Below, in pieces: positions 8,451 through 62,059 of a stretch of 64,000 nucleotides of DNA. The translations under genes and the position numbers were made by a program. The notes beneath the pieces are model-generated. The model ran no database searches. It was not told where the DNA came from and saw only the letters and a program-made list of their open reading frames with translations. Position 1 is the stretch's first letter. Each line of letters starts with the position of its first letter. The DNA lies in assembly GCF_044704955.1 (NCBI RefSeq), contig NC_091984.1:148242001-148306000 (forward strand), written 5' to 3'. The DNA comes from Pristiophorus japonicus. Lineage: Eukaryota.

Positions 8451-8768
8451 CATCATCCTCATCGACGGACCCTCGAACGAGGATGACTTGCTTGCACATG
8501 AGTTCAGAGATGTTTCAATGAAGGACCCGATGTTCCAGTCCTGAACTCCAATTGAAGAGGTTGAAGATGCCTGTGCATGGATTGTTTTAATGTGTGGTGA
8601 CTGTTGCATATCAGCCACTACACAGGCTTGACAGAGCTAGGCCTTTATCCAGTGGCAAGGGTTAACCAGGACGACTGGAGACCTGCTCTACTGCATGGGC
8701 CTAGTGCGCACACATATCGCAGTGTAGCCTGGCCTATGCTGCTCCTGGGCCCTCGGCTCTTCTGGTGC
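8451..8768 (-). mobile_element. RTE-tailed SINE-like repeat, split by the young CR1 (probably continues 13515-13820)
   Basis: Begins with a (cat)n tail plus ccctcgaacgaggatgacttgctt resembling the RTE 3' end at 1370-1414; a homologous copy in the opposite orientation is at ~28255-28480. Confidence 0.55.
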
Positions 8769-9315
8769 CGAGGAGGCGGGAGCTCGGAGCAGCGTGAGTC
8801 CGGGGTCGGCGAGAGGCCTATAAAGGCCAGCGGGAGCTCGGAGCAGTCAGTCGAGGAGGCGGGAGCTCGGAGCAGCGCGAGTCCGGGGTCGGCGAGAGGC
8901 CTATAAAGGCCAGCGGGAGCTCGGAGCAGTCAGTCGAGGAGGCGGGAGCTCGGAGCAGCGCGAGTCCGGGGTCGGCGAGAGGCCTATAAAGGCCAGCGGG
9001 AGCTCGGAGCAGTCAGTCGAGGAGGCGGGAGCTCGGAGCAGCGCGAGTCCGGGGTCGGCGAGAGGCCTATAAAGGCCAGCGGGAGCTCGGAGCAGTCAGT
9101 CGAGGAGGCGGGAGCTCGGAGCAGCGCGAGTCCGGGGTCGGCGAGAGGCCTATAAAGGCCAGCGGGAGCTCGGAGCAGTCAGTCGAGGAGGCGGGAGCTC
9201 GGAGCAGCGCGAGTCCGGGTTCGGCGAGAGGCCTATAAAGGCCAGCGGGAGCTCGGAGCAGTCAGTCGAGGAGGCGGGAGCTCGGAGCAGCGCGAGTCCG
9301 GGTTCGGCGAGAGGC
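8769..9315 (+). repeat. 83-bp CpG-rich tandem array (~6.6 copies) forming the CR1 5' end
   Basis: TATAAA recurs at 8819, 8902, 8985, 9068, 9151 and 9234 (period 83); units near-identical. Confidence 0.95.
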
Positions 9316-9482
9316 GTACCGGTGCAGCTACAGGGAGAAGGCAAAAAAACAAAGGTGACGTCACAGCCTAGGGGGTAAGTGATTGGCTGGTGATTGGTGA
9401 GTAGTTTTTCTTTTTCTTCTTATATTGGTCAGTAACTTTTAACATTGTTATTACCAGTTTAAGTGTATCTAAGGGTTAAGAC

Positions 9483-40969: not shown

Positions 40970-42566
40970 TGTAAGATGTGTGGATTTACCCCTCACACCG
41001 TCCAACAGTTTATAGAGTTCGGACCTGTGGAACAGACAGCTCAAGACAAAAATTTCTGGAATAAGTTCTCTTTACTTAAAATCACCAAGAGGTTACAAGT
41101 AAGTCTCTAATAGTACTGTTACACTCAGTAATCCCGGGTTATAAACAAGCCTCTAATACTAATTTTGAAGCTCTTTTTACACTACAAAACTAGGAGTAAT
41201 GGGCAGTCCCTCAGTGTGTCTGTGTCGCATTCGATGGGAGTAATGGGCAGTCACTCAGTGTGTCCGTGTCCCATTCGATGGGAGTAATGGGCAGTCCCTC
41301 AGTGTGTCCATGTCCCATTCGATGGGAGTAATGGGCAGTCTCTCAGTGTGTCCGTGTCCCATTCGATGGCAGTAATGGGCAGTCCCTCAGTGTGTCCATG
41401 TCCCATTCGATGGGAGTAATGGGCAGTTCCTCAGTGTGGCTGTGTCTCATTCAATGGGAGTAATGGGCAGTCCCTTAGTGTGTCCATGTCCCATTCAATG
41501 GGAGTAATGGGCAGTCCCTCAGTGTGGCTGTGTCTCATTCAATGGGAGTAATGGGCAGTCCCTTAGTGTGTCCATGTCCCATTCAATGGGAGTAATGGGC
41601 AGTCCCTCAGTGTGGCTGTGTCTCATTCAATGGGAGTAATGGGCAGTCCCTTAGTGTGTCCATGTCCCATTCAATGGGAGTAATGGGCAGTCCCTCAGTG
41701 TGTCCATGTCCCATTCGCTGGGAGTAATGGGCAGTCCCTCAGTGTGTCCGTGTCCCATTCGCTGGGAGTAATGGGCAGTCCCTCAGTGTGTCCGTGTCCT
41801 ATTCGATGGGCGTAATGGGCAGTCCCTCAGTGTGTCCGTGTCCCATTCGCTGGGAGTAATGGGCAGTCCCTCAGTGTGTCCATGTCCCATTCGATGGGAG
41901 TAATGTGCAGTCCCTCAGTGTGTTCTTGTCCCACTCAATGGGAGTAATGGGCAGTCCCTCAGTGTGTCCATGTTCCATTTGATGGGAGTAATGGGCAGTC
42001 CCTCAGTGTGTCCGTGTCCCATTCGATGGGAGTAATGGGCAGTCCCTCAGTGTGTCCGTGTCCCATTCGATGGGAGTAATGGGCAGTCCCTCAGTGTGTC
42101 CGTGTCCCATTCGATGGGAGTAATGGGCAGTCCCTCAGTGTGTCCATGTCCCATTCGATGGGAGTAATGGGCAGTCCCTCAGTGTGTCCGTGTCCCATTC
42201 GATGGGAGTAATGGGCAGTCCCTCAGTGTGTCCATGTCTCATTCGATGGGAGGAATGGCCGTAGATGTTCTTCTCCTCTCCTGATCAACCAGCTAGACAG
42301 TTAATCAGTCGAATGCAAAACTGGAGACTTCTTGTGTGCTGATGTTCCTGTTTCTGAGTCTGTTCTCGCAAAGTTCTCACGGTCTGAAGGCCACTATTTC
42401 CCTTACCTGTGAAACACAGCTTTCGAAGTAGCTCAACCACAGGACAGCTTGCAGCGTTCAGCAGCTTTAATGGACATTTGTGCAGCAGAAAGTCCTGTTG
42501 GCCTCGCGAGGCATGCTGGTACATAAAATCTGGTCAAGTTACAGCAAACTTGTACAAAATCTTACC
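40970..42566 (-). mobile_element. LTR-like insertion carrying the 44-bp minisatellite, inside a SINE
   Basis: Inverted termini tGTAAGAT..ATCTTACc, imperfect 4-bp TSD tcac/ccac; flanking SINE-like sequence joins across it. Confidence 0.55.
41193..42258. repeat. 44-bp minisatellite, 24 copies
   Basis: Unit gggagtaatgggcagtccctcagtgtgtccgtgtcccattcgat; exact period 44 from 41195 to 42251. Confidence 0.97.
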
Positions 42567-42709: not shown

Positions 42710-43169
42710 TGTCGAGGAAATTTCTAAGTTAATTAACTCAGGCGGAGGCTTCAGAATCGTGCTTCGAGAGAATTTTATTTTAAAAAGCGAAATATCTCGG
42801 AGAGCCTGCTTGGACCATACCAAGGCAGAAAACTCTCCTGTACAAGCAAATTGTCCCTATCTTTATACAGAAATAGAATACAGAAATAGAAAAGGAATCT
42901 TATTCATTAGTTCCGTGAGTACAAAGGTCGTCTCGGGAGGCACACACTCTATCTGTCCTTGCATAGTTTCTCCCTGTTCACAGTCTGATAAGCAGAGTAT
43001 CAGGAGACTCCCTGTTAATACCGGATAGTCATTTAATTACATTTCTAAGTTTTAAGGCTAAAAAGTGTGGGTGTTGTTCTAGTCCTATTATTTCTTCAAA
43101 TATAGCAAAAACAGAATTCAACCCTTCCCTTTACCATAAGCCATGGATTCATAGATTCTTTCTTCCACA
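42710..43169 (-). repeat. ERV 3' LTR (460 bp)
   Basis: 8 substitutions + 1 indel versus the 5' LTR by manual alignment; preceded on the minus strand by PPT aagaagggaat (43170-43180). Confidence 0.96.
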
Positions 43170-45282
43170 ATTCCCTTCTTGTTGATTTTTTTTTCAGATC
43201 AACACAATTTCCTATATTCTCTTCTTGCGCAAAAGGGGGTTCATACCCTTCAGGATAGGGTCGCATTTTGAGATATTCGTCTTCATCAACCTTTTCCTCT
43301 AAGCAACTTAACCTTCCTTTCATGCACACACTTTTCCTTTCTATTTCGGAGATCAGGCCTATTACTTGACTAATTACATTTTTTTATTTTATCCACATTC
43401 CGCAAAGGATTATTAATAATACAAGCATAACCACACCTACGATTACTATGGGGTGTATAGCAAGCTTCAGTACTGCTGTAGCTTTTGGGGACCATCCGGT
43501 AAACACATCCCACCAGTGGTGTACTGTCAAAGAGGTGACTTCGTCTACAATTCTTACTAGTTGCCCCTTCTTGTAACTCATTTCGACTCTAAATTGGTGG
43601 ATGTTTCTGCCTTGCTTTGACAGAGCTTCCTCAATTTTCTTGTCATTCCGTATCAAATTGTGCAGTCTGGTCAGATTAATTACGGGGGGTAAGGGTTCAA
43701 TCTTGTGCATAGACAGATATTTTTCTACATTTTGCCATTGCCCAAAGGTATAAGTTGTTTTTACTTCAGGGTCATACAGGGAGTAGACTCTTCTCACGCA
43801 TTTATTAATGGGGGGTTTATACAAAATTCCATCCAGAGAGACAGGTTTATTTCCTGTCACACAGACCTCATTCTGTCCTATTTCCGTAATATCAGTGTCA
43901 TTTGTTGGCTTTAATTCCCATTTACATACTCCAATGGAGTGCTGCAGTGAGCATGGTTCGTATATGGCGGTCTGATAGGGACATACCATTCCGAATGGCC
44001 ACCTAGCATCTGGTGATGTGTCATATTCTTCTCATCGACCCAATCTCCTTTAAATTCTGGGTACCAGAATTTCTGTCCAAACAGTTGGGGCATTACTTGG
44101 AACTGACACCAAATTTATTTTCGTGTCTTACTTACTATCTCCACAGTAACTTTACATCCTTTTGAATTACAACTGGTATATCTTTTTTTTGAGGGTTAAT
44201 GGTTAAATTAAGAAGCTTATCCCTTTTGTTAATTTCCAGCAACCTTTCCCATGTGTTAGCATGGAAGGATAATATTTTCCTTTCTAACTCGGCTCTTAAT
44301 AGCTGTCTGATCATTTCTTTAAACAGGCAATGGGTGTACTTGTTACTCCCTGTTGTTCCTTTATTAGGTTCTCTATTTCCTTCTCTACCCTTTCATTCTG
44401 TTGCCAGGTCATTTCATTTAGGACGTAACCTGATATCTGTAATTGCTGTAATCCTTCATCCCAGGCATTTCTGATTTTTATATCTTCCCCTACCAGTCCT
44501 CCGACGGCCTGGATTTTATTTTGTAGGGTCTCAATATCCATGGAGTTCAATGCTCCTATTCCTGCTCCCACTCCACCTAACACAGTCTCTAATACATCCC
44601 GTTTCTTTCTTTGGGGTCTTTCTTTTTCAAAAGATACCTTAACACTGGTTGTGTGGCAACCATCTTCTTTCTTTGGGGGATATTTAATTCGTATTGTTAG
44701 ATTTAATACACCTGGGGATCTTACCACTGGGATGCAAGTGGTCAGTATCCTTTTTAGATGTCCCGGGTCCCGGTCTTCTGGGTGGCCAGATTATTTTACT
44801 GACCATTTTACCACGAATGGGTCTCCTCCATTCACCGGGGTGTTATTCATGCACAACATCCGCTGCCCTTCTACCATACTTGTAAATGAATAAAGGAGGA
44901 AGTCTTTTCTCTCGTCCGGCCCTCCTATGTACCCCCATCTCTTGTTTTTCCCCGTGCTGTGGGTACACTTCATCCACACATCGGCCTGGTATTCTATGAA
45001 CAACTGATACCCTTTCCCCAATATAAACTGGAATTCCCCTCTTTCTTCTTTCATTCCACACGCCTCACATCGTGTCGTAAAGTTCCCTACTTTACAACTT
45101 TGGCCTACTGTGCATATAAAATTGCCTTGTTGCCTTGCACTATTACTTCTTTCCCATACCATATTTCCCTTCCATACTCTTCCTTCTTTTAGAACTTCTT
45201 CCTCCTGCCGGGAGTTCCCTGTCGCTAAAATGATCAGTATACCTAACGTCCATTTATAATTTTTCCAAGAGTCCCTTCCCAT
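43096..45282 (-). pseudogene. env: ERV envelope gene (disrupted by about 3 stops and 2 frameshifts)
   Basis: Signal peptide MGRDSWKNYKWTLGILIILA, furin site RKKR, fusion peptide DVLETVLGGVGAGIGAL, membrane anchor IVIVGVVMLVLLIILCGMW; the tail continues in frame after the TAA at 43384. Confidence 0.9.
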
Positions 45283-45409
45283 CTTCCCTTTCTTGTTTGT
45301 TTCTATACCACTCTTGAATTAAGTCGTTACAATAACAACACGTCCACACGATAGTAACAGTGGCCCAAATAATAAAGGCCCAAACTGGCACACAAATGAG
45401 CTCTGACAT
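45254..45409 (-). CDS. Putative ERV accessory single-pass membrane protein (51 aa)
   Basis: Manual translation MSELICVPVWAFIIWATVTIVWTCCYCNDLIQEWYRNKQEREDGKGLLEKL*; lies between the pol stop and env, overlapping the env ATG by 29 nt. Confidence 0.6.
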   Translation of the reverse strand: MSELICVPVWAFIIWATVTIVWTCCYCNDLIQEWYRNKQEREDGKGLLEKL

Positions 45410-45507
45410 CCGTTCCTGAACTTTTGGGCAGTACTTTCAAGTCCAAATATTTAATTTAATGCAAGAGCAGGTACAGTTCTTCAGCGAGAAGATGGCCTTT
45501 TTCTTAG

Positions 45508-48500
45508 TCAGGCAATCGTAGTACGTCCTGGTTCGATGCCTTTTCTTTTGGCTGTATTTCGTCGGGAAAATAATTTACAATGGGTTGCATGCACCCAATT
45601 TGGATGCTTTTCCAACTTCCGCGCAGTTCGTGTTGTGAGAATTATCTGATATGGTCCTTTCCACCGAGGAGAAAAGGATTCTTTGTTTAATGTTTTTACC
45701 AGCAGTTGATCTCCAGGCCTGAAAGGGTGCATATTTCCTTCCGACGGGGGCACCTGTGTCTGCTTTATTTGTTCATGCAGACTCCTTGCTATTTCACACA
45801 TGGCCTGAGCATACTTTAGTGATTTTTCATCATTCCAAATTAATGCTATTTTTTCAGCTGCCAGTGGTGGTTTTACGCCAGTAGGCATTGGTCTTCCCAA
45901 TAAGGCTTCATGTGGTGTCAAACCAGTGTTTCGGTTTTTCTGGTTTCTCATTGTATACAATACCAATGGTAAGGCATCTGGCCACTTTAGTCCAGTCTCC
46001 TGGCATACCTTGGTAAGGGTAGATTTTATTATCCCATTTACTCTTTCTACCATTCCCGAGGACTGTGGCTGATATGGTATATGTAACTTCCACTGGAAAC
46101 CTAACGCTTCTGCAAGGTTTTGCACTATTTTTCCGGTGAAGTGTGTTCCCCTGTCACTGTTGATTCCCATAGGTATCCCATATCTTGGTACTGTTTCTTT
46201 AAATAGAATTTTTACTACTATTCGGACATCGTCTCTCCTCGTGGCGTACGCTTCTACCCACCTTGTGAACATGTCTATTATGACTAATAGGTACTTAAGA
46301 CCTGATACTGGAGGCGTGTGGATAAAATCAATTTGCAAATTTTCAAAGGGCATACTTGGCTGGGGTAGATGATCATATTCAGCAGGTGTTTTACCTTTGT
46401 TATTTTGTTGACAAATTTGGCATGTTCTCGCAACTTTCTCAATTACTACTGTTATTCCTGGTGCATACCACTGTGCATTAATAGCATGTATCATCCCTCC
46501 TTTGCCCATTTGAGCCTGACCATGTGCTAGGCGAGACAGGGGCAAAAATAGAGATTTAGGGCAAACAGTTCGCCCATCAGGGTGACACCAGATGTCGTTC
46601 TTGAGAAAACAACCCTGGTTTTCCCAAGTTCTTCCTTCCTGCATGGTAACTTGTTGTTGGGCTGTTTTAAGTTGTTGGATGTCAAGTACCTGTGGAGGGG
46701 AGACTGAGACTGCTTGAAGGCAGTCTGCCTGTGCCGAAGTGGCCTGTTTGGCTGCCTCGTCAGCCCTCCTATTTCCTACTGATACTTCATCCTCACCGGT
46801 TGTGTGAGCTGCACATTTGATGACGGCTACCTTACTTGGCAACTGAATGGCATCTAATAGATTAAGTACCAGTTGAGAGTGCTTAATATGCTTTCCATCA
46901 GAGGTGATAAAGCCTCTGTTTTTCCACAGTTGTCCAAAATCATGGACCACACCAAATGCATATCTGGAATCAGTATAGATATTAGCAGTATGATCTTTAG
47001 CTATTATACAAGCTCTAGTGAGGGCAAACAATTCAGCAGCCTGAGCCGAGGTTCCGGGAGGCAGGGCGAATGCTTCAACAGTTTCGTGGGGATTTACAAT
47101 AGCATAGCCTGCCAACAGCAAGTCATCCGACGGCCTATGTGATGATCCATCCGTATAGAGAATAAGATCAGGATTGTCCATGGGCTCTGTGAGCAAATCT
47201 GGTCTTGGTAAGGTGGCTATTTCCACTGTTAACAGACAATCATGCTGGTCTGGATCCTCTATTCTTTAGTAGGAAGAAAGGTGGCTGGGTTTACTACCGG
47301 TGCGCGTCGAAAGGTATAGTTAGGGTGTGACAGCAGTAATACTTCATAACCTGTTCTTCTAGACGCTGTAAAGTGTTGTGTGGCAGCTGAATTCAAAAGT
47401 AATAACACAGCATGGGCTGTAATGACAGCACATAGATAATCCAAAACAATAGGTACCGACTTCTCCACCATGACTGCAGTAGCAGCTACAGCACGTAGAC
47501 ATGCTGGCATTCCCCTTACTACTGGAGGCAGCAAAATCGAATAATAAGCAACTGGTCTATTTCCCCCACCATGTTCGTGGGTTAGTACTGCGGTTGCAAA
47601 TCCTTCTTTCTCATTCACATACATCTGAAAAGGTTTACCATAATTCGGAAGTCCCAACGCCGGAGCATTAGTAATGGCCTCCTTTAACTGTTTAAAAGCC
47701 TCCTCTCTCTCTGGGGTCCACTCCACCTTGGGTGGGGCATCATTTAGGGCAGCTGATCTTAGGACCGCATCCCATTCTCGATAATCGGGGATCCATTGTC
47801 TACAGTACCCAACCATCCCCAAAAATGACAAGATATCCTTCTTTGTCTTTGGTATGGGGGCACTTTGAATTGTCTGAATTCTTTCTGGTCCTAGCTGCCT
47901 CTGCCCTTGAGATATGTGAAAACCCAGGTACTGGACTTGAGTCTGACAAAATTGTAACTTTGGTAACGACACTCGGTGCCCTCTTTCACATAGGTTCTGT
48001 AACAGTTTTAGGGAGTCTTGTACGCACCTGTATCCGTGGCTAGAAGCCACAAGCAAATCGTCCGCATACTGCAACAGCACAGACTGGTCTGATAATGAAC
48101 AGTCGTCAAGGTCTCTTTTTACTGCTGCTGCATATACTGCGGGGCTTTCGGTGTATCCTTGGGGCAATCTGGTCCATGTGTACTGCTGCTTCTTGTGGGT
48201 GAAAGCAAACAGATACTGACTTTCTTGATTTAAGGGATGGAGAAAAAAGCTGAACACAGGTCTATCACAGTAAAGACAGTTGCTGTTGGTGGTATAGCAG
48301 ATAGTATAATGTTGGTGTCCGGTACCACAGGGATGATAGGGACTACTATCTTATTAATAGCTCTCAGATCTTGCACAAATCTCCATTCATTCGGCCTATT
48401 AACCTTTGGTATGGGCAGTATCGGAGTGTTACACGGGCTCTGTGTCTTTTTTAAAACTCCTTGTTCCAACAATGCAGAAATGACTGGCTCTATCCCATTT

Positions 48501-49663
48501 TCTGCCTCTGGAGGCAGTCTGTACTGTCTAATGCTTGGTAACACGGCGTTCTTTATCAATTGTACCCGATGGGGTACTGCAGAATGTACTTGCCCAACAT
48601 GATTCTTATGCTTTGCCCAAAGTTCAGAAGATACTTGATTCAATGTCATTGGCAGCTTTGGGCTTGGTTGTTCCGGGGGTTGCTGTTTTTCAAAAGTGGA
48701 GGCGTGATTTTTACCTTTCCACTGGAGAATCCCCCTGTTGTGGGTGATAAAGTCTATCTGAACATTTTGCAGTTTTATTACTGCCCAAGGTTGATAGCCT
48801 TGTTGCTGTTTTTCTTTTTCTATTCCTACAATCATCGGACCCATATCTTTTGTTTTCGCTGGCGGTTTTGTAGCCAATGTCAGATGGGGTGTCGAGTTCG
48901 CTTCTCTATACCGCTGCTGCTGTAAGGGTGTCAAATCCATGGCTACCCCCAATCCTTCTGGTCCAAAATAAATGTGGGGCGTAGCTTCTACTATTTCTTC
49001 TTTTTTTAAAAAGGATTGTACCAAACACTGGTAAGTTTCAGCTTTTTGTCGAGTGTACCAGGCTGTACAATGAAGCTGAACTGCCTGAATGCTTGTCAAA
49101 ATTATATACATCAATTCTTCAGTATTAGGGTCGATTTTAGCTTTTAAATTTTGTATAACTTCATGTATCAAAGGGGAGTAGAAGTTGCCATTCAATTGCC
49201 AACAATAGAGGGCAGCCTTTTCTTTGTTATCCTCCCTTTTCTCTTCTTTAATCCCATTAAACAACTGATGAATTTTATTTGGAGGGAGCTCCATGTACAT
49301 TCCTTCCTTTGTGCAATAAATTGTGGCTCCTAGTTTGCACAAAGTCTGTCTTCCCAATAAAGGGAGAGGTGTTGTTTTAGAGACTATCAAAGTCTCATCA
49401 TTAACTGGTTGTCCTTCAATTATCAATTTGGTAGGTTCAGATAAAAATTCTTTCATGGGAATACCGGCCACACCCATACTTAAGACGGTGGTGTTGCTTA
49501 CAGGTAATCCCACAGAGGATGGTACAGAAGACATAGTAGCACCGGTATCCACCAGGAATTTCACATAAGTGTCTCCTACTTTTACTACTGCCAAAGGGTT
49601 TTCTTCTATGTCTGCTGATAAGTGGAGGGCTGCCGCCTGTACCACTAAGCCTCCAGGGCATCC
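45508..49663 (-). pseudogene. pol: ERV pro-pol: protease, 2H-like insert, RT, RNase H, integrase (2 frameshifts)
   Basis: FLVDTGA; WRFVQDLR, LPQG, QYADDLL; YTDGS/AQAAEL/YTDSRY; CQIC, LQIDF, SDRGTHF, GMVER, WKGPY; frameshifts near 48240 and 47260. Confidence 0.95.
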
Positions 49664-51307
49664 CTATGCTGATTGGTGCGGGTTGGGGTTAGAGAACGAA
49701 AACTGAGGGGCCAATGAAGGTGGAGGTTTGGGGAAATCCCCTTGTAACCCTCCATCCTGTTTCGGGGGGCATCTGCAATCGCGAGCCCAATGCCCTTTCC
49801 TTCCACAATTTCTACACTCATCTTGGGAGCGGTCTCGTTGGGGCCACTGTCCTCTCCCTCTTCCTCGTCCTCGTCCCCCAAACCCTCCTCTATTATTCTG
49901 TGCCTGTCCTCTTCCCTTTTGCTGATAGTACTGACCTGCTGTTTTAGCCTTATTTTCCTTATAGGTGAATAGTCCCTCCCTATCCATGTTGGCCAAGACT
50001 GTAATTGTTTCCTTCCAGCTTTTTCTTTGCCAGTCCAAAACCTTAATTTTATAGGTTCTCACGTGTTGCGGCAACATATAATTTAACAAGGTTTGCACTG
50101 CCAAAGGTTCATTTTGATCCATTGGTATTGCTGCATGCTCGTCTCAACTATTTTTCCATCTGCCTGCAAAATCTATTATTGATTCTTCTGCTTTCTGCAG
50201 ACAGCGCGTGACTTCCCCTATATCTCCATGCTTTTTAGCTCCCTTTAGTATGGCATCCTTGCCCCTGTGCTGCAACCAATGTTCGCGGGACTCATTTTCT
50301 TCTACCTCATTATCTTCCCGCCAATCTCCGTTTTCGCCGGCGGGTATAGGGAACATATCTTTTACCCCCTGCCAAGAGGACCCATATGCTGCCTGCAGTA
50401 ATAATTTCACATCTCCGGGGAGGGGGTTATAAATGGTACAGGTTTGCTCAAGCCAGTTATGAAAGGCTACTGGCTTCTTAACAGGATTAGGGGTGGCTGA
50501 TATCATATCCCGAGCTTCCAGGGCTTTAGGACAGCCGTGGTTCCAATCATTACACGGGGGGCTTGTGTCGTGGGGGTAGTGGTGGAATCGGCCTGTCTTA
50601 TGGTATTCCTGGTATTCATTCCAGGGTCAGGGTTGGGGTTTTCGCCTTCGGCTCCTCCACTTGCCCCTCCTTCCCCGTTTTCATCCTCTGGTGGGTTCTG
50701 GGGTCGTGGTTGCATTCGTCGCCAAGAGGCCTGATCTAGCTGGGCAGCCACTATTTCTATGATCTCCTGCCAATCATCCGGCTTGGTGGTTGGAAGACGG
50801 GGATATAAGCCGACAGGGGAAGCGGTCATAACTGGGGCTCTCGGGGGGGCTGTAAGAGGGAGGGGGCTTCTCCTTACCCTCCTCCTCTTTCTTTTTATTT
50901 TTAGGGGGCTGGTGCCTTTTTGCCACCTCTGTCCATTTTTTAAAACAATTCTCCATATAATCTTTATCCCAAGTGGGGTCCCCCGCCCCATCTTTGGTGG
51001 TCTGTCTCCATTCCTCAATTAAGGACAATTTAAAACTTCCTCCATATGGCCAATCCCCATCATACCAACCGTACAAATCGCTACTAAACGTTACCGCGTA
51101 TCTGTCGTCTCCTGTTTCTTTAATTACAGTGTCTGCCGGCGAGCCGGGCGGCACAATAGGATCTCCTACCTTCTCTTGTTGCTTTACTACCTTACTGATT
51201 TTTTTCTCAGTCTTAGGATGTACTTTCATTCTTTCAGTTGAGAGGTCGTCTTTCTTTCCTTTTCTAGGAGCTGGGCGCGATCTTTTCTGAAATGAGAGTT
51301 GGGACAA
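49664..51307 (-). pseudogene. gag: ERV gag (2 frameshifts, 1 premature stop)
   Basis: Single CCHC knuckle CRNCGRKGHWARDC, RG-rich NC, MHR-like CLQKAEESIIDFAGR, PPSY and YPRL motifs; ends in a TAG in frame with pro. Confidence 0.9.
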
Positions 51308-51554
51308 TCCTACAAAATATACAATAATTTACAAAGCGCTCAGCTCGGGGTCTCCTTTTGCCTTTTTGTTATTTTAGCTTCTTTGCGGTAGCTACCTTAA
51401 ATTATGCCTCACCCTCCAGGGGATCTCGGCAGCTCGTCCCCCTTTCAGCTAGGACGGCCGAGGCACCTTCCTCCTTTCAGCTAGGAAGGTCCTTAAAATT
51501 CCTCTTTACTCTTTAAAAGTTAAATTTAGTTCTTTTGGATCTCGTTTTTTAGAG

Positions 51555-51573
51555 ATCCTGCCGGACTACGCCA
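51555..51573 (-). other. ERV primer-binding site, tRNA-Ser
   Basis: TGGCGTAGTCCGGCAGGAT = complement of the vertebrate tRNA-Ser 3' end (..AUCCUGCCGACUACGCCA) with one extra C, 5 nt from the LTR. Confidence 0.85.
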
Positions 51574-51578
51574 GAATC

Positions 51579-52039
51579 TGTCGAGGAAATTTCTCAGTTA
51601 ATTAACTCAGGCGGAGGCTTTCAGAGTCGTGCTTCGAGAGAATTTTATTTAAAAAAGCGAAATATCTCGGAGAGCCTGCTTGGACCGTACCAAGGCAGAA
51701 AACTCTCCTGTACAAGCAAAATGTCCCTATCTTTATACAGAAATAGAATACAGAAATAGAAAAGGAATCTTATTCATTAGTTCCGTGAGTACAAAGGTCG
51801 TCTCGGGAGGCACACACTCTATCTGTCCTTGCATAGTTTCTCCCTGTTCACAGTCTGATAAGCAGAATATCAGGAGACTCCCTTTTAATACCGGATAGTC
51901 ATTTAATTACATTTCTAAGTTTTAAGGCTAAAAAGTGTGGGTGTTGTTCTAGTCCTATTATTTCTTCAAATATAGCAAAAACAGAATTTAACCCTTCCCT
52001 TTACCATAAGCCATGGATTCATAGATTCTTTCTTCCACA
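51579..52039 (-). repeat. ERV 5' LTR (461 bp)
   Basis: Direct repeat of 42710-43169; TATAAA and AATAAA on the minus strand. Confidence 0.96.
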
Positions 52040-60815: not shown

Positions 60816-61126
60816 AGATCAGGGGTAGTAGGTCAATGAGGTCAGGATAGTAGGTCAGTGAGGTCAGGTGTAGTAGGTCAGTGAGGTCAGGGGTCATATT
60901 GGAACAGCACTTGGTGTGAGACAAGGTATGGACACTGCATTTTGGAAAGTTGTGGTTTATGGAGAGCGGATGAAGGAAGCCAGGAGGGGACATCGGAATA
61001 ATCGAGTTTGGCGATGAGACAAACAGGGTTAAGGGATTTTTCCATCAAGGGGCTGATGTAGGGCGGTGATGGGCAATGTTGGAGGCCGATGTAATAGAGA
61101 GGGTGTGGGGTTCGAAGTTCAATCTT

Positions 61127-61468
61127 TGGAGGACCAATAAGAAGGAGCCATATTTCCTGGACCCTATTGGAGAACCAATAGGAAGCAGCCATGTTTCCTG
61201 GGCCCTATTGGAGGTCCAATAGGAAGGAGCTATATTTCCTATTCCCTATTGGAGGACCAATAGGGAAGGATCCATATTTCCTGGTCCCTATTGGGGGACC
61301 AATAGGAAGGAGCCATGTTTCCTGGTCCCTATTGGGGGACCAATAGGAAGGAGCCAGGTTTCCTGTTCACTATTGGAGGACCAATAGGAAAGATCCATGT
61401 TTTCTGGTCACTGTTGGGGGACCAATAGGAAGGAGCCAGGTTTCCTGGGCCCTATTGGAGGACCAGTG
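61127..61468. repeat. 41-bp palindromic minisatellite (~8 copies)
   Basis: ccaata at 61134, 61175, 61216, 61257, 61299, 61340, 61381 and 61422; unit contains CCTATTGG-n4-CCAATAGG. Confidence 0.92.
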
Positions 61469-62059
61469 GGACATGGAGTCCATTGTTGATATGGAGTGCA
61501 GACCCTTCCTGTTGTAAATTTGGGATCGTCGGCACCTGATCGAAGTAAAAACACCCTGACCCGGAGCAGGGCCATGGAAGGGGAAGGAGAGGGGAAGGGA
61601 TTCGAAGATGTTCTGAGCGGACAGGATGGGGCAGTGGGTCAGAACCTGTCCTGTCGCTCCAGCTCACACTGATGGGGTGAGGATCTCCTCCCTCTGCGGG
61701 GCCTTCATGAAATTAGCTTTCTGTCCAAAGTGGTCCCCACTGAGAATAGGCACACAGCACAGAACGGCCATTAATTGGGCAATAAACAGCCAGTGTACTG
61801 AGAGAGGCCACGGGATGGTCACTGTGGGGAATGGGGCCTTACTCCAGGAGAAGGCATGCTCTGGGGTCAAGGGTTAACTTCCATTGGTAGGACAGGGCAC
61901 AGGGAGGTTTACTCTGCATTTCAGTGTGCTGCACCTGGGAGTCTGTGGAGAAGAGAGAGGGAGGGATGGAGAGAGAGAGGAAGGGAGAGGGAGGTGAAGA
62001 GGGAGGGAGAGAAGAAGAGGAATTGAAATGTGCTGATGTAGCTTTCTCTGGGTGAAGAC

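Follow-up and report, generated by a model that had tools for sequence, protein, structure and literature searches.

Does the short interval between pol and env of an endogenous retrovirus in Pristiophorus japonicus hold a gene of its own, and if so, what might its product do? The question is raised by one provirus within a 64,000-nt stretch of contig NC_091984.1 (the window, analysed over its whole length), for which a first-pass annotation had proposed a small membrane protein encoded across the start of env.

The provirus and the ORF at its pol-env border

The locus belongs to a provirus of about 9.3 kb on the minus strand, bounded by LTRs and a 5-bp target-site duplication. The window copy is defective, as gag, pol, and env carry stops and frameshifts and both splice signals are impaired. 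Its parts are the following.

51579-52039, minus strand: 5' LTR, 461 nt, identical to the 3' LTR at 452 of 460 aligned bases
51555-51573, minus strand: primer-binding site, which we take to be of the tRNA-Ser type
49664-51229, minus strand: gag, with one CCHC knuckle, broken here
45508-49660, minus strand: pro-pol, class I (MLV-like RT, RNase H, MLVIN_C integrase end), broken here
43096-45282, minus strand: env, with a signal peptide, a beta-rich SU, RKKR at 44610-44599, and a long F-like TM subunit, broken by stops and frameshifts
42710-43169, minus strand: 3' LTR, 460 nt, paired with the 5' LTR

Judged by its best matches, pol is class I. Among solved structures, those of MLV/XMRV are nearest to RT and RNase H (RT E 2e-72, versus 1e-24 for foamy RT), the RT is much nearer to MLV than to the foamy or Ty3 enzymes, and Pfam assigns the C-terminal end of integrase to MLVIN_C. 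Window positions 48660-49250 on the minus strand, which separate protease from RT, encode an additional segment of about 190 aa containing two HxT-like motifs. Its Atlas neighbours are 2H phosphodiesterases, with scores of 0.82-0.84 that provide a lead only; a 2H domain occurs in fish epsilon-like pol genes.

Env appears to be of a different kind. For 35 Env relatives, Pfam returned no family at all, the gamma type (TLV_coat-type TM subunit) included. AlphaFold was applied to the env frame of a single natural copy (L015, 594 residues; mean pLDDT 69), and Foldseek matched the model to the F proteins of RSV, hPIV3, measles, and hMPV, with 29 matches at E <= 0.001. The best match, RSV F, combines E 3.4e-6 and probability 1.0 with a TM-score of only about 0.25. 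Together with the signal peptide, RxKR site, and coiled coil, the model points to a pneumovirus/paramyxovirus F-like fold. The nearest named relatives come from Pristiophorus (83%) and Heterodontus (40%), and others occur in sharks, frogs, a caecilian, a turtle, echidna, koala, and birds. A weak match (E = 1e-5) links the sequence to the 873-aa chicken LOC422926 protein, probably Ovex1 ORF3 (PMC2717909). This Env clade may deserve a study of its own. A long cytoplasmic-tail region with Tyr/Pro motifs (window 43096-43383, minus strand) runs into the 3' LTR. Elsewhere in the window, tandem arrays lie at 41058-42413, 8686-9432, and 61085-61511, with units of 44, 83, and 41 nt.

In the window copy, most of the pol-env gap is occupied by a 51-codon ORF. 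Its start lies 98 nt beyond the end of pol at 45508, and its last 29 nt cover the env ATG (45282) in another frame. Position and sequence are as the first-pass annotation, which gave no strand, had stated them, and the three elements it had pointed out in the product (an N-terminal hydrophobic segment, CCYC, and DGKGLL) are all present.

45254-45409, minus strand: 51-codon accessory ORF, predicted single-pass membrane protein, weak start context
45332-45400, minus strand: hydrophobic segment, residues ~4-26, predicted single transmembrane helix, KD19 2.2-2.45 in five copies
45329-45340, minus strand: juxtamembrane Cys cluster CCYC, residues 24-27, at least two Cys in 141 of 143 copies
45266-45283, minus strand: [DE]xxxLL motif DGKGLL, residues 43-48, within the env overlap, DxxxLL in 136 of 143 copies

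Taken over 19 residues, the Kyte-Doolittle score of the ORF peaks at 2.2, in the segment that begins at residue 4. Since 4 of the 122 ATG-opened ORFs of 45-65 aa in the 64-kb window reach a KD19 of 2.0 or more, a single copy is only moderately unusual and proves little; it is conservation across subfamilies that raises the ORF above chance. An AlphaFold model adds little, giving one long helix with pLDDT of about 90 over residues 11-30 and pTM 0.41 (five sequences). Residue 3 is acidic and basic residues lie about ten beyond the helix, charges from which we infer an N-out/C-in topology. The Cys cluster is a candidate for palmitoylation. Conservation of DxxxLL is partly confounded because the motif sits in the env overlap and its D codon contains the env start codon. 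On inspection, the tail tyrosines do not fit a YxxPhi sorting motif.

Database searches placed the ORF in no known family. Pfam returned none at E <= 1, and the best Atlas score was 0.79, below chance level. A protein database search with the single ORF protein and a five-copy alignment, covering lengths of 28-90 aa only, found no homologue; conservation is therefore shown in one genome only. Integrase, used as the query against viral contigs, brought up no relative.

Retention and selection across the family

The genome holds 660-680 candidate places for the provirus region. Among the 30 copies nearest by DNA, including the window copy, 27 carry the 51-codon ORF as a frame separate from env; two of the others have premature stops, and one reads into env through a private indel. 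Two doubts attached to the original proposal, namely that the ORF might be missing from the family consensus or might simply be a frameshifted N-terminus of Env, are answered by these counts. That the ORF is the true Env N-terminus, split by a frameshift here or joined by programmed frameshifting, is largely refuted and can be regarded as highly improbable. Single copies (L014, L057) do run into the env frame by private indels, and subfamily A has an A-run within the overlap. However, that run is interrupted in a subfamily C copy, the frames stay apart in the 27 copies above, and Env begins with a signal peptide of its own, read from a strong ATG.

Searches with a Heterodontus Env and a diverged ORF recovered three further subfamilies, C, D, and E, whose ORFs share about 70%, 78%, and 73% amino acid identity with that of the window, a member of subfamily A. 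The ORF ATG, its stop, and the 127-nt offset to the env ATG are kept in all four subfamilies. Retention was counted in copies picked by env; those picked by ORF similarity were left out, as selection bias prevents their retention from counting as evidence. In 20 of 31 env-picked copies, the ORF opens with ATG and spans 50-51 codons, 7 of which are replaced in one copy. The remaining 11 comprise seven deletions of the start or the whole ORF, one ORF cut to 40 codons, one lost ATG, and two early stops, and some ORF-removing deletions are common to several copies. Since these 11 have no intact ORF, spread of a copy does not depend on having it in cis, and the gene is an accessory one in the narrow meaning of the word.

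Several other patterns accompany these counts. In L091 and L096, a shared deletion removes the ORF ATG and tail and leaves the hydrophobic part in frame with env. Several lineages among L031-L069 and L145-L158 have internal env deletions in common (13, 65, 148, 226 nt, and larger) yet multiplied, hence env-defective copies also spread. The integrase ends of L091-L094 are 92-94% identical to that of the window, whereas the N-terminal halves of their Env are 55-75% identical to subfamily A, a pattern that suggests fast SU evolution or recombination near the pol-env border.

The same genome harbors a second family (B; L071-L090 and L108) with the same Env type (~33% identity) and a different pol, including a short integrase of ~30% identity. 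None of its 21 loci has an ORF match, and env begins 12-42 nt past the pol stop in the 14 of 21 loci with the pol end located. The occurrence of one Env type on two unrelated pol backbones in this genome indicates env exchange between backbones.

Selection was assessed in natural copies only (143 grouped: A 78, C 30, D 21, E 14; 10 with indels or partial ORFs and 2 duplicates dropped), over codons 2-42 (41 codons), outside the env overlap. Pairwise dN/dS in the ORF frame is 0.27-0.66 in all six subfamily pairs. The other sense frames give 0.59-1.81 (+1) and 0.56-1.77 (+2) between subfamilies, and in the A-C pair the +1 frame (0.59) falls below the ORF frame (0.66). Within subfamily A, dN/dS is 1.01, as expected of post-insertion decay. 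Codon models were fitted to five random samples of 7-15 distinct sequences, with 10 further copies bearing local indels or replacements excluded and subfamily A drawn from the DNA-picked set. Omega in the ORF frame is about 0.5-0.65, with an interval below 1 in four of five samples and likelihood-ratio p values of 0.034, 0.035, 0.010, 0.113, and 0.009; these count as one result, since the samples have internal branches in common. The other two sense frames yield omega values of 1.0-2.3. With a sample of 21, the ORF frame reached p = 0.016 and the +2 frame p = 0.044, the latter a frame with omega of 1 or above in the five-sample models.

Additional lines of evidence concern the reading frame itself. 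Third-position bias is specific to the ORF frame, and mean stops per copy amount to 0-0.04 there versus 0.6-6 in the five other frames. Nucleotide identity between subfamilies is 78-89% in the ORF and 68-83% in the first 120 nt of env beyond it. In the 90 nt before the ORF, it is 58-65% with 3-5 gap blocks in five of six subfamily pairs, and 91% in D-E. This comparison used six copies per group, and the gap-free state of the ORF is partly by construction. Within residues 4-22, all eight variable hydrophobic positions stay hydrophobic, against an expectation of about 44% for single changes. Most C-D and C-E differences within the env overlap leave the ORF protein unchanged but alter Env, while those between A and the other subfamilies are mixed. 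The dN/dS comparison that the first-pass annotation had called for thus yields purifying selection that appears detectable but modest (omega about 0.5 in the ORF frame), and borderline over 41 codons. Taken together, the ORF is probably a real accessory gene under selection.

The frame could instead be a relic or by-product, either the stub (signal anchor) of an older env displaced when recombination introduced the F-type env or an RNA element that keeps the frame open by chance. Evidence for env swaps, the several lineages that deleted the ORF and still spread, and the borderline selection signal are all compatible with such an origin. Even so, it would have to account for the near absence of stops and for third-position bias in this frame only, which makes it improbable.

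Transcript and start codons

Three public runs of one study (X1-X3; kind unrecorded) contain the provirus family, and no run recorded as RNA was listed with it. One contig of run X2 passes from the leader (window ~51338) directly into position 45664, within the 3' end of integrase, and the loose ends of two contigs represent a variant of the same leader at the same integrase place. The joints listed for X1 and X3 include no leader-integrase joint. Whether searched for exactly or with one mismatch allowed, the joined form turns up nowhere in the genome, while the unjoined donor occurs at 364 places. As the joined form is absent from the genome, the joint is best read as splicing.

51330-51345, minus strand: leader splice donor position, from the X2 junction; the window copy is without the donor-bearing segment of other copies
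45664-45666, minus strand: env splice-acceptor position inside the integrase 3' end, from the X2 junction, exon 2 from 45664; degenerate in the window copy
45504-45590, minus strand: short uORF with the only other ATG between the acceptor and the ORF, weak context, 28 codons here

Genomic copies carry a canonical donor at the leader position. A pyrimidine tract and canonical acceptor end are found in 114 of 130 anchored copies (13 of the 143 lack the anchor). From the acceptor to the ORF ATG, the distance is about 255 nt in the window and about 250-277 nt in most copies. The proposal would have fallen with an env acceptor downstream of the ORF start; the acceptor observed, in one of the three runs, lies upstream on the viral sense strand, and the ORF is therefore carried on an env-type mRNA. 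Candidate acceptors inside the ORF are weaker, with 7-9 of 14 pyrimidines versus 11 for the observed site, and an env-only mRNA from one of these may also be possible. A second candidate, 65-90 nt upstream of the ORF, would give an mRNA that also includes it.

Between the acceptor and the env ATG, the window has two ATGs in 382 nt versus about eight expected from pol (P = 0.014). In most copies of subfamilies A, D, and E, the short upstream uORF is 19 codons long. Position -3 of the ORF ATG is a pyrimidine in 123 of 130 copies, a weak context, and all 130 have A at -3 of the env start, a strong one. These contexts are consistent with leaky scanning past the ORF ATG to the env ATG.

The same arrangement could serve regulation alone. 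As an overlapping uORF, it would divert initiating ribosomes past the env start and set the level of Env, and the peptide would be irrelevant. An ATG and out-of-frame overlap fixed in four subfamilies, within a leader otherwise poor in ATGs, would suit that role, and so would an omega of only about 0.5. Nevertheless, a regulatory uORF has no need to retain hydrophobicity over 23 residues, a cluster of Cys, and a dileucine motif, nor would its substitutions have to be conservative and frame-specific, and we rate it as quite unlikely. The relic discussed above meets a further difficulty here, in that an unused ATG opening a frame across the env start should presumably vanish from an ATG-depleted leader.

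A putative sorting adaptor and its relation to known systems

The mechanism we propose starts from a singly spliced mRNA, running from the leader donor to the acceptor in the integrase end, that would carry both the ORF and env. Some ribosomes would initiate at the weak ORF ATG, and others would scan on to the strong env ATG. The product would be an uncleaved single-pass membrane protein with a probably luminal N-terminus of three residues, a Cys cluster that is probably palmitoylated, and a short cytosolic tail. Its transmembrane helix may bind a host surface protein, either an entry receptor or a restriction factor, and the acidic dileucine motif could pass the bound protein to clathrin adaptors for removal from the cell surface. 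Such a product would act as a Vpu-like sorting adaptor without an E3-recruiting motif of the Vpu type. This reading is favoured because the membrane helix, Cys cluster, and acidic dileucine motif are what is conserved, and by analogy with Vpu we hold it tentatively, at somewhat less than even confidence.

Action in virus assembly is unlikely but deserves weighing, whether as an oligomeric SH-type viroporin or as a partner that escorts or retains the F-type Env. A single helix with Thr residues and a Cys cluster, expression of the ORF and Env from one mRNA, and the predicted pneumovirus/paramyxovirus F-like fold of Env would all agree with it. Pneumoviruses and paramyxoviruses encode SH proteins near their glycoprotein genes. 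A weak Atlas neighbour cluster, with PF03579 SHP in 20% of its members, scores 0.75, below chance level. On the other hand, a pore does not explain the conserved dileucine motif, the ORF has no Pfam match, and family B shows that this Env type does not need the ORF.

As regards the sorting adaptor, HIV-1/SIVcpz Vpu provides the closest analogy. In the portions of PMC8402909 available, Vpu is a small membrane protein with an N-terminal helix and an acidic dileucine in its tail, encoded just 5' of env on a bicistronic env mRNA and reached through leaky scanning, which for the present ORF is our own deduction. The differences are also clear. The ORF encodes 51 aa rather than 81 and has a Cys cluster; sequence similarity to Vpu is undetected (Pfam), DSG of the DSGxxS beta-TrCP motif occurs in none of the 143 copies, and the virus combines a class I Pol with an F-like Env, is not a lentivirus, and has a shark as its host. 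Without homology or DSGxxS, the ORF is not a member of the Vpu family, described in those portions of PMC8402909 for HIV-1 and some SIVs only. Of the convergent Vpu-like protein first proposed, what stands is a probable gene, kept in four subfamilies with a modest selection signal and carried on an env mRNA; the beta-TrCP motif is missing, and the window provirus itself is defective. The full claim, that a class I fish retrovirus with an F-like Env independently evolved the whole vpu/env design, with a leaky-scanned, palmitoylated dileucine adaptor that removes a host antiviral or receptor protein from the cell surface, in hosts distant from mammals, is doubtful at present.

The literature searched, outside which most subscription papers and preprint supplements fall, yielded no published description of such an ORF, and the available parts of PMC12690878 and PMC8672886 contained nothing relevant to it. 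For fish and amphibian epsilon-related ERVs with a gamma-type Env, the main part of a survey (bioRxiv 2021.11.23.469661) reported no accessory genes, and its supplements might bear on this point. The accessible sections on lokiretrovirus (PMC7947760) and Ovex1 (PMC2717909) make no mention of a small membrane ORF before env. Lokiretrovirus resembles the present virus in its F-like Env (Mononegavirales F) but, according to the same sections of PMC7947760, has an RT that branches as sister to those of all other retroviruses, in contrast to the MLV-like RT of the present virus.

Teleost ERVs offer further parallels. Foamy-like DrFV-2, PpERV-1, and AcERV carry pol-env accessory ORFs under purifying selection, as summarized in the available text of PMC5210030. 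In contrast to the present ORF, the two that are sized there measure 1263 and 1335 nt, the viruses are foamy-like rather than class I, and the authors found no transmembrane motifs in the AcERV-type accessory genes. The comparison most liable to reduce novelty is ORF1 of the snakehead retrovirus, likewise a fish retrovirus, with a predicted accessory ORF of 52 residues carried on subgenomic mRNA and with a long Env tail (PMC12193657, in part). It was compared by the description in that source only, and the RT here is MLV-like.

The present ORF suggests that ORF-length cut-offs may hide accessory genes in ERV catalogues. If the product is an antagonist, it could help to identify antiviral factors at the cell surface of cartilaginous fish. 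And if a class I fish retrovirus does encode a selected small membrane protein on its env mRNA, the vpu/env layout would have arisen twice.
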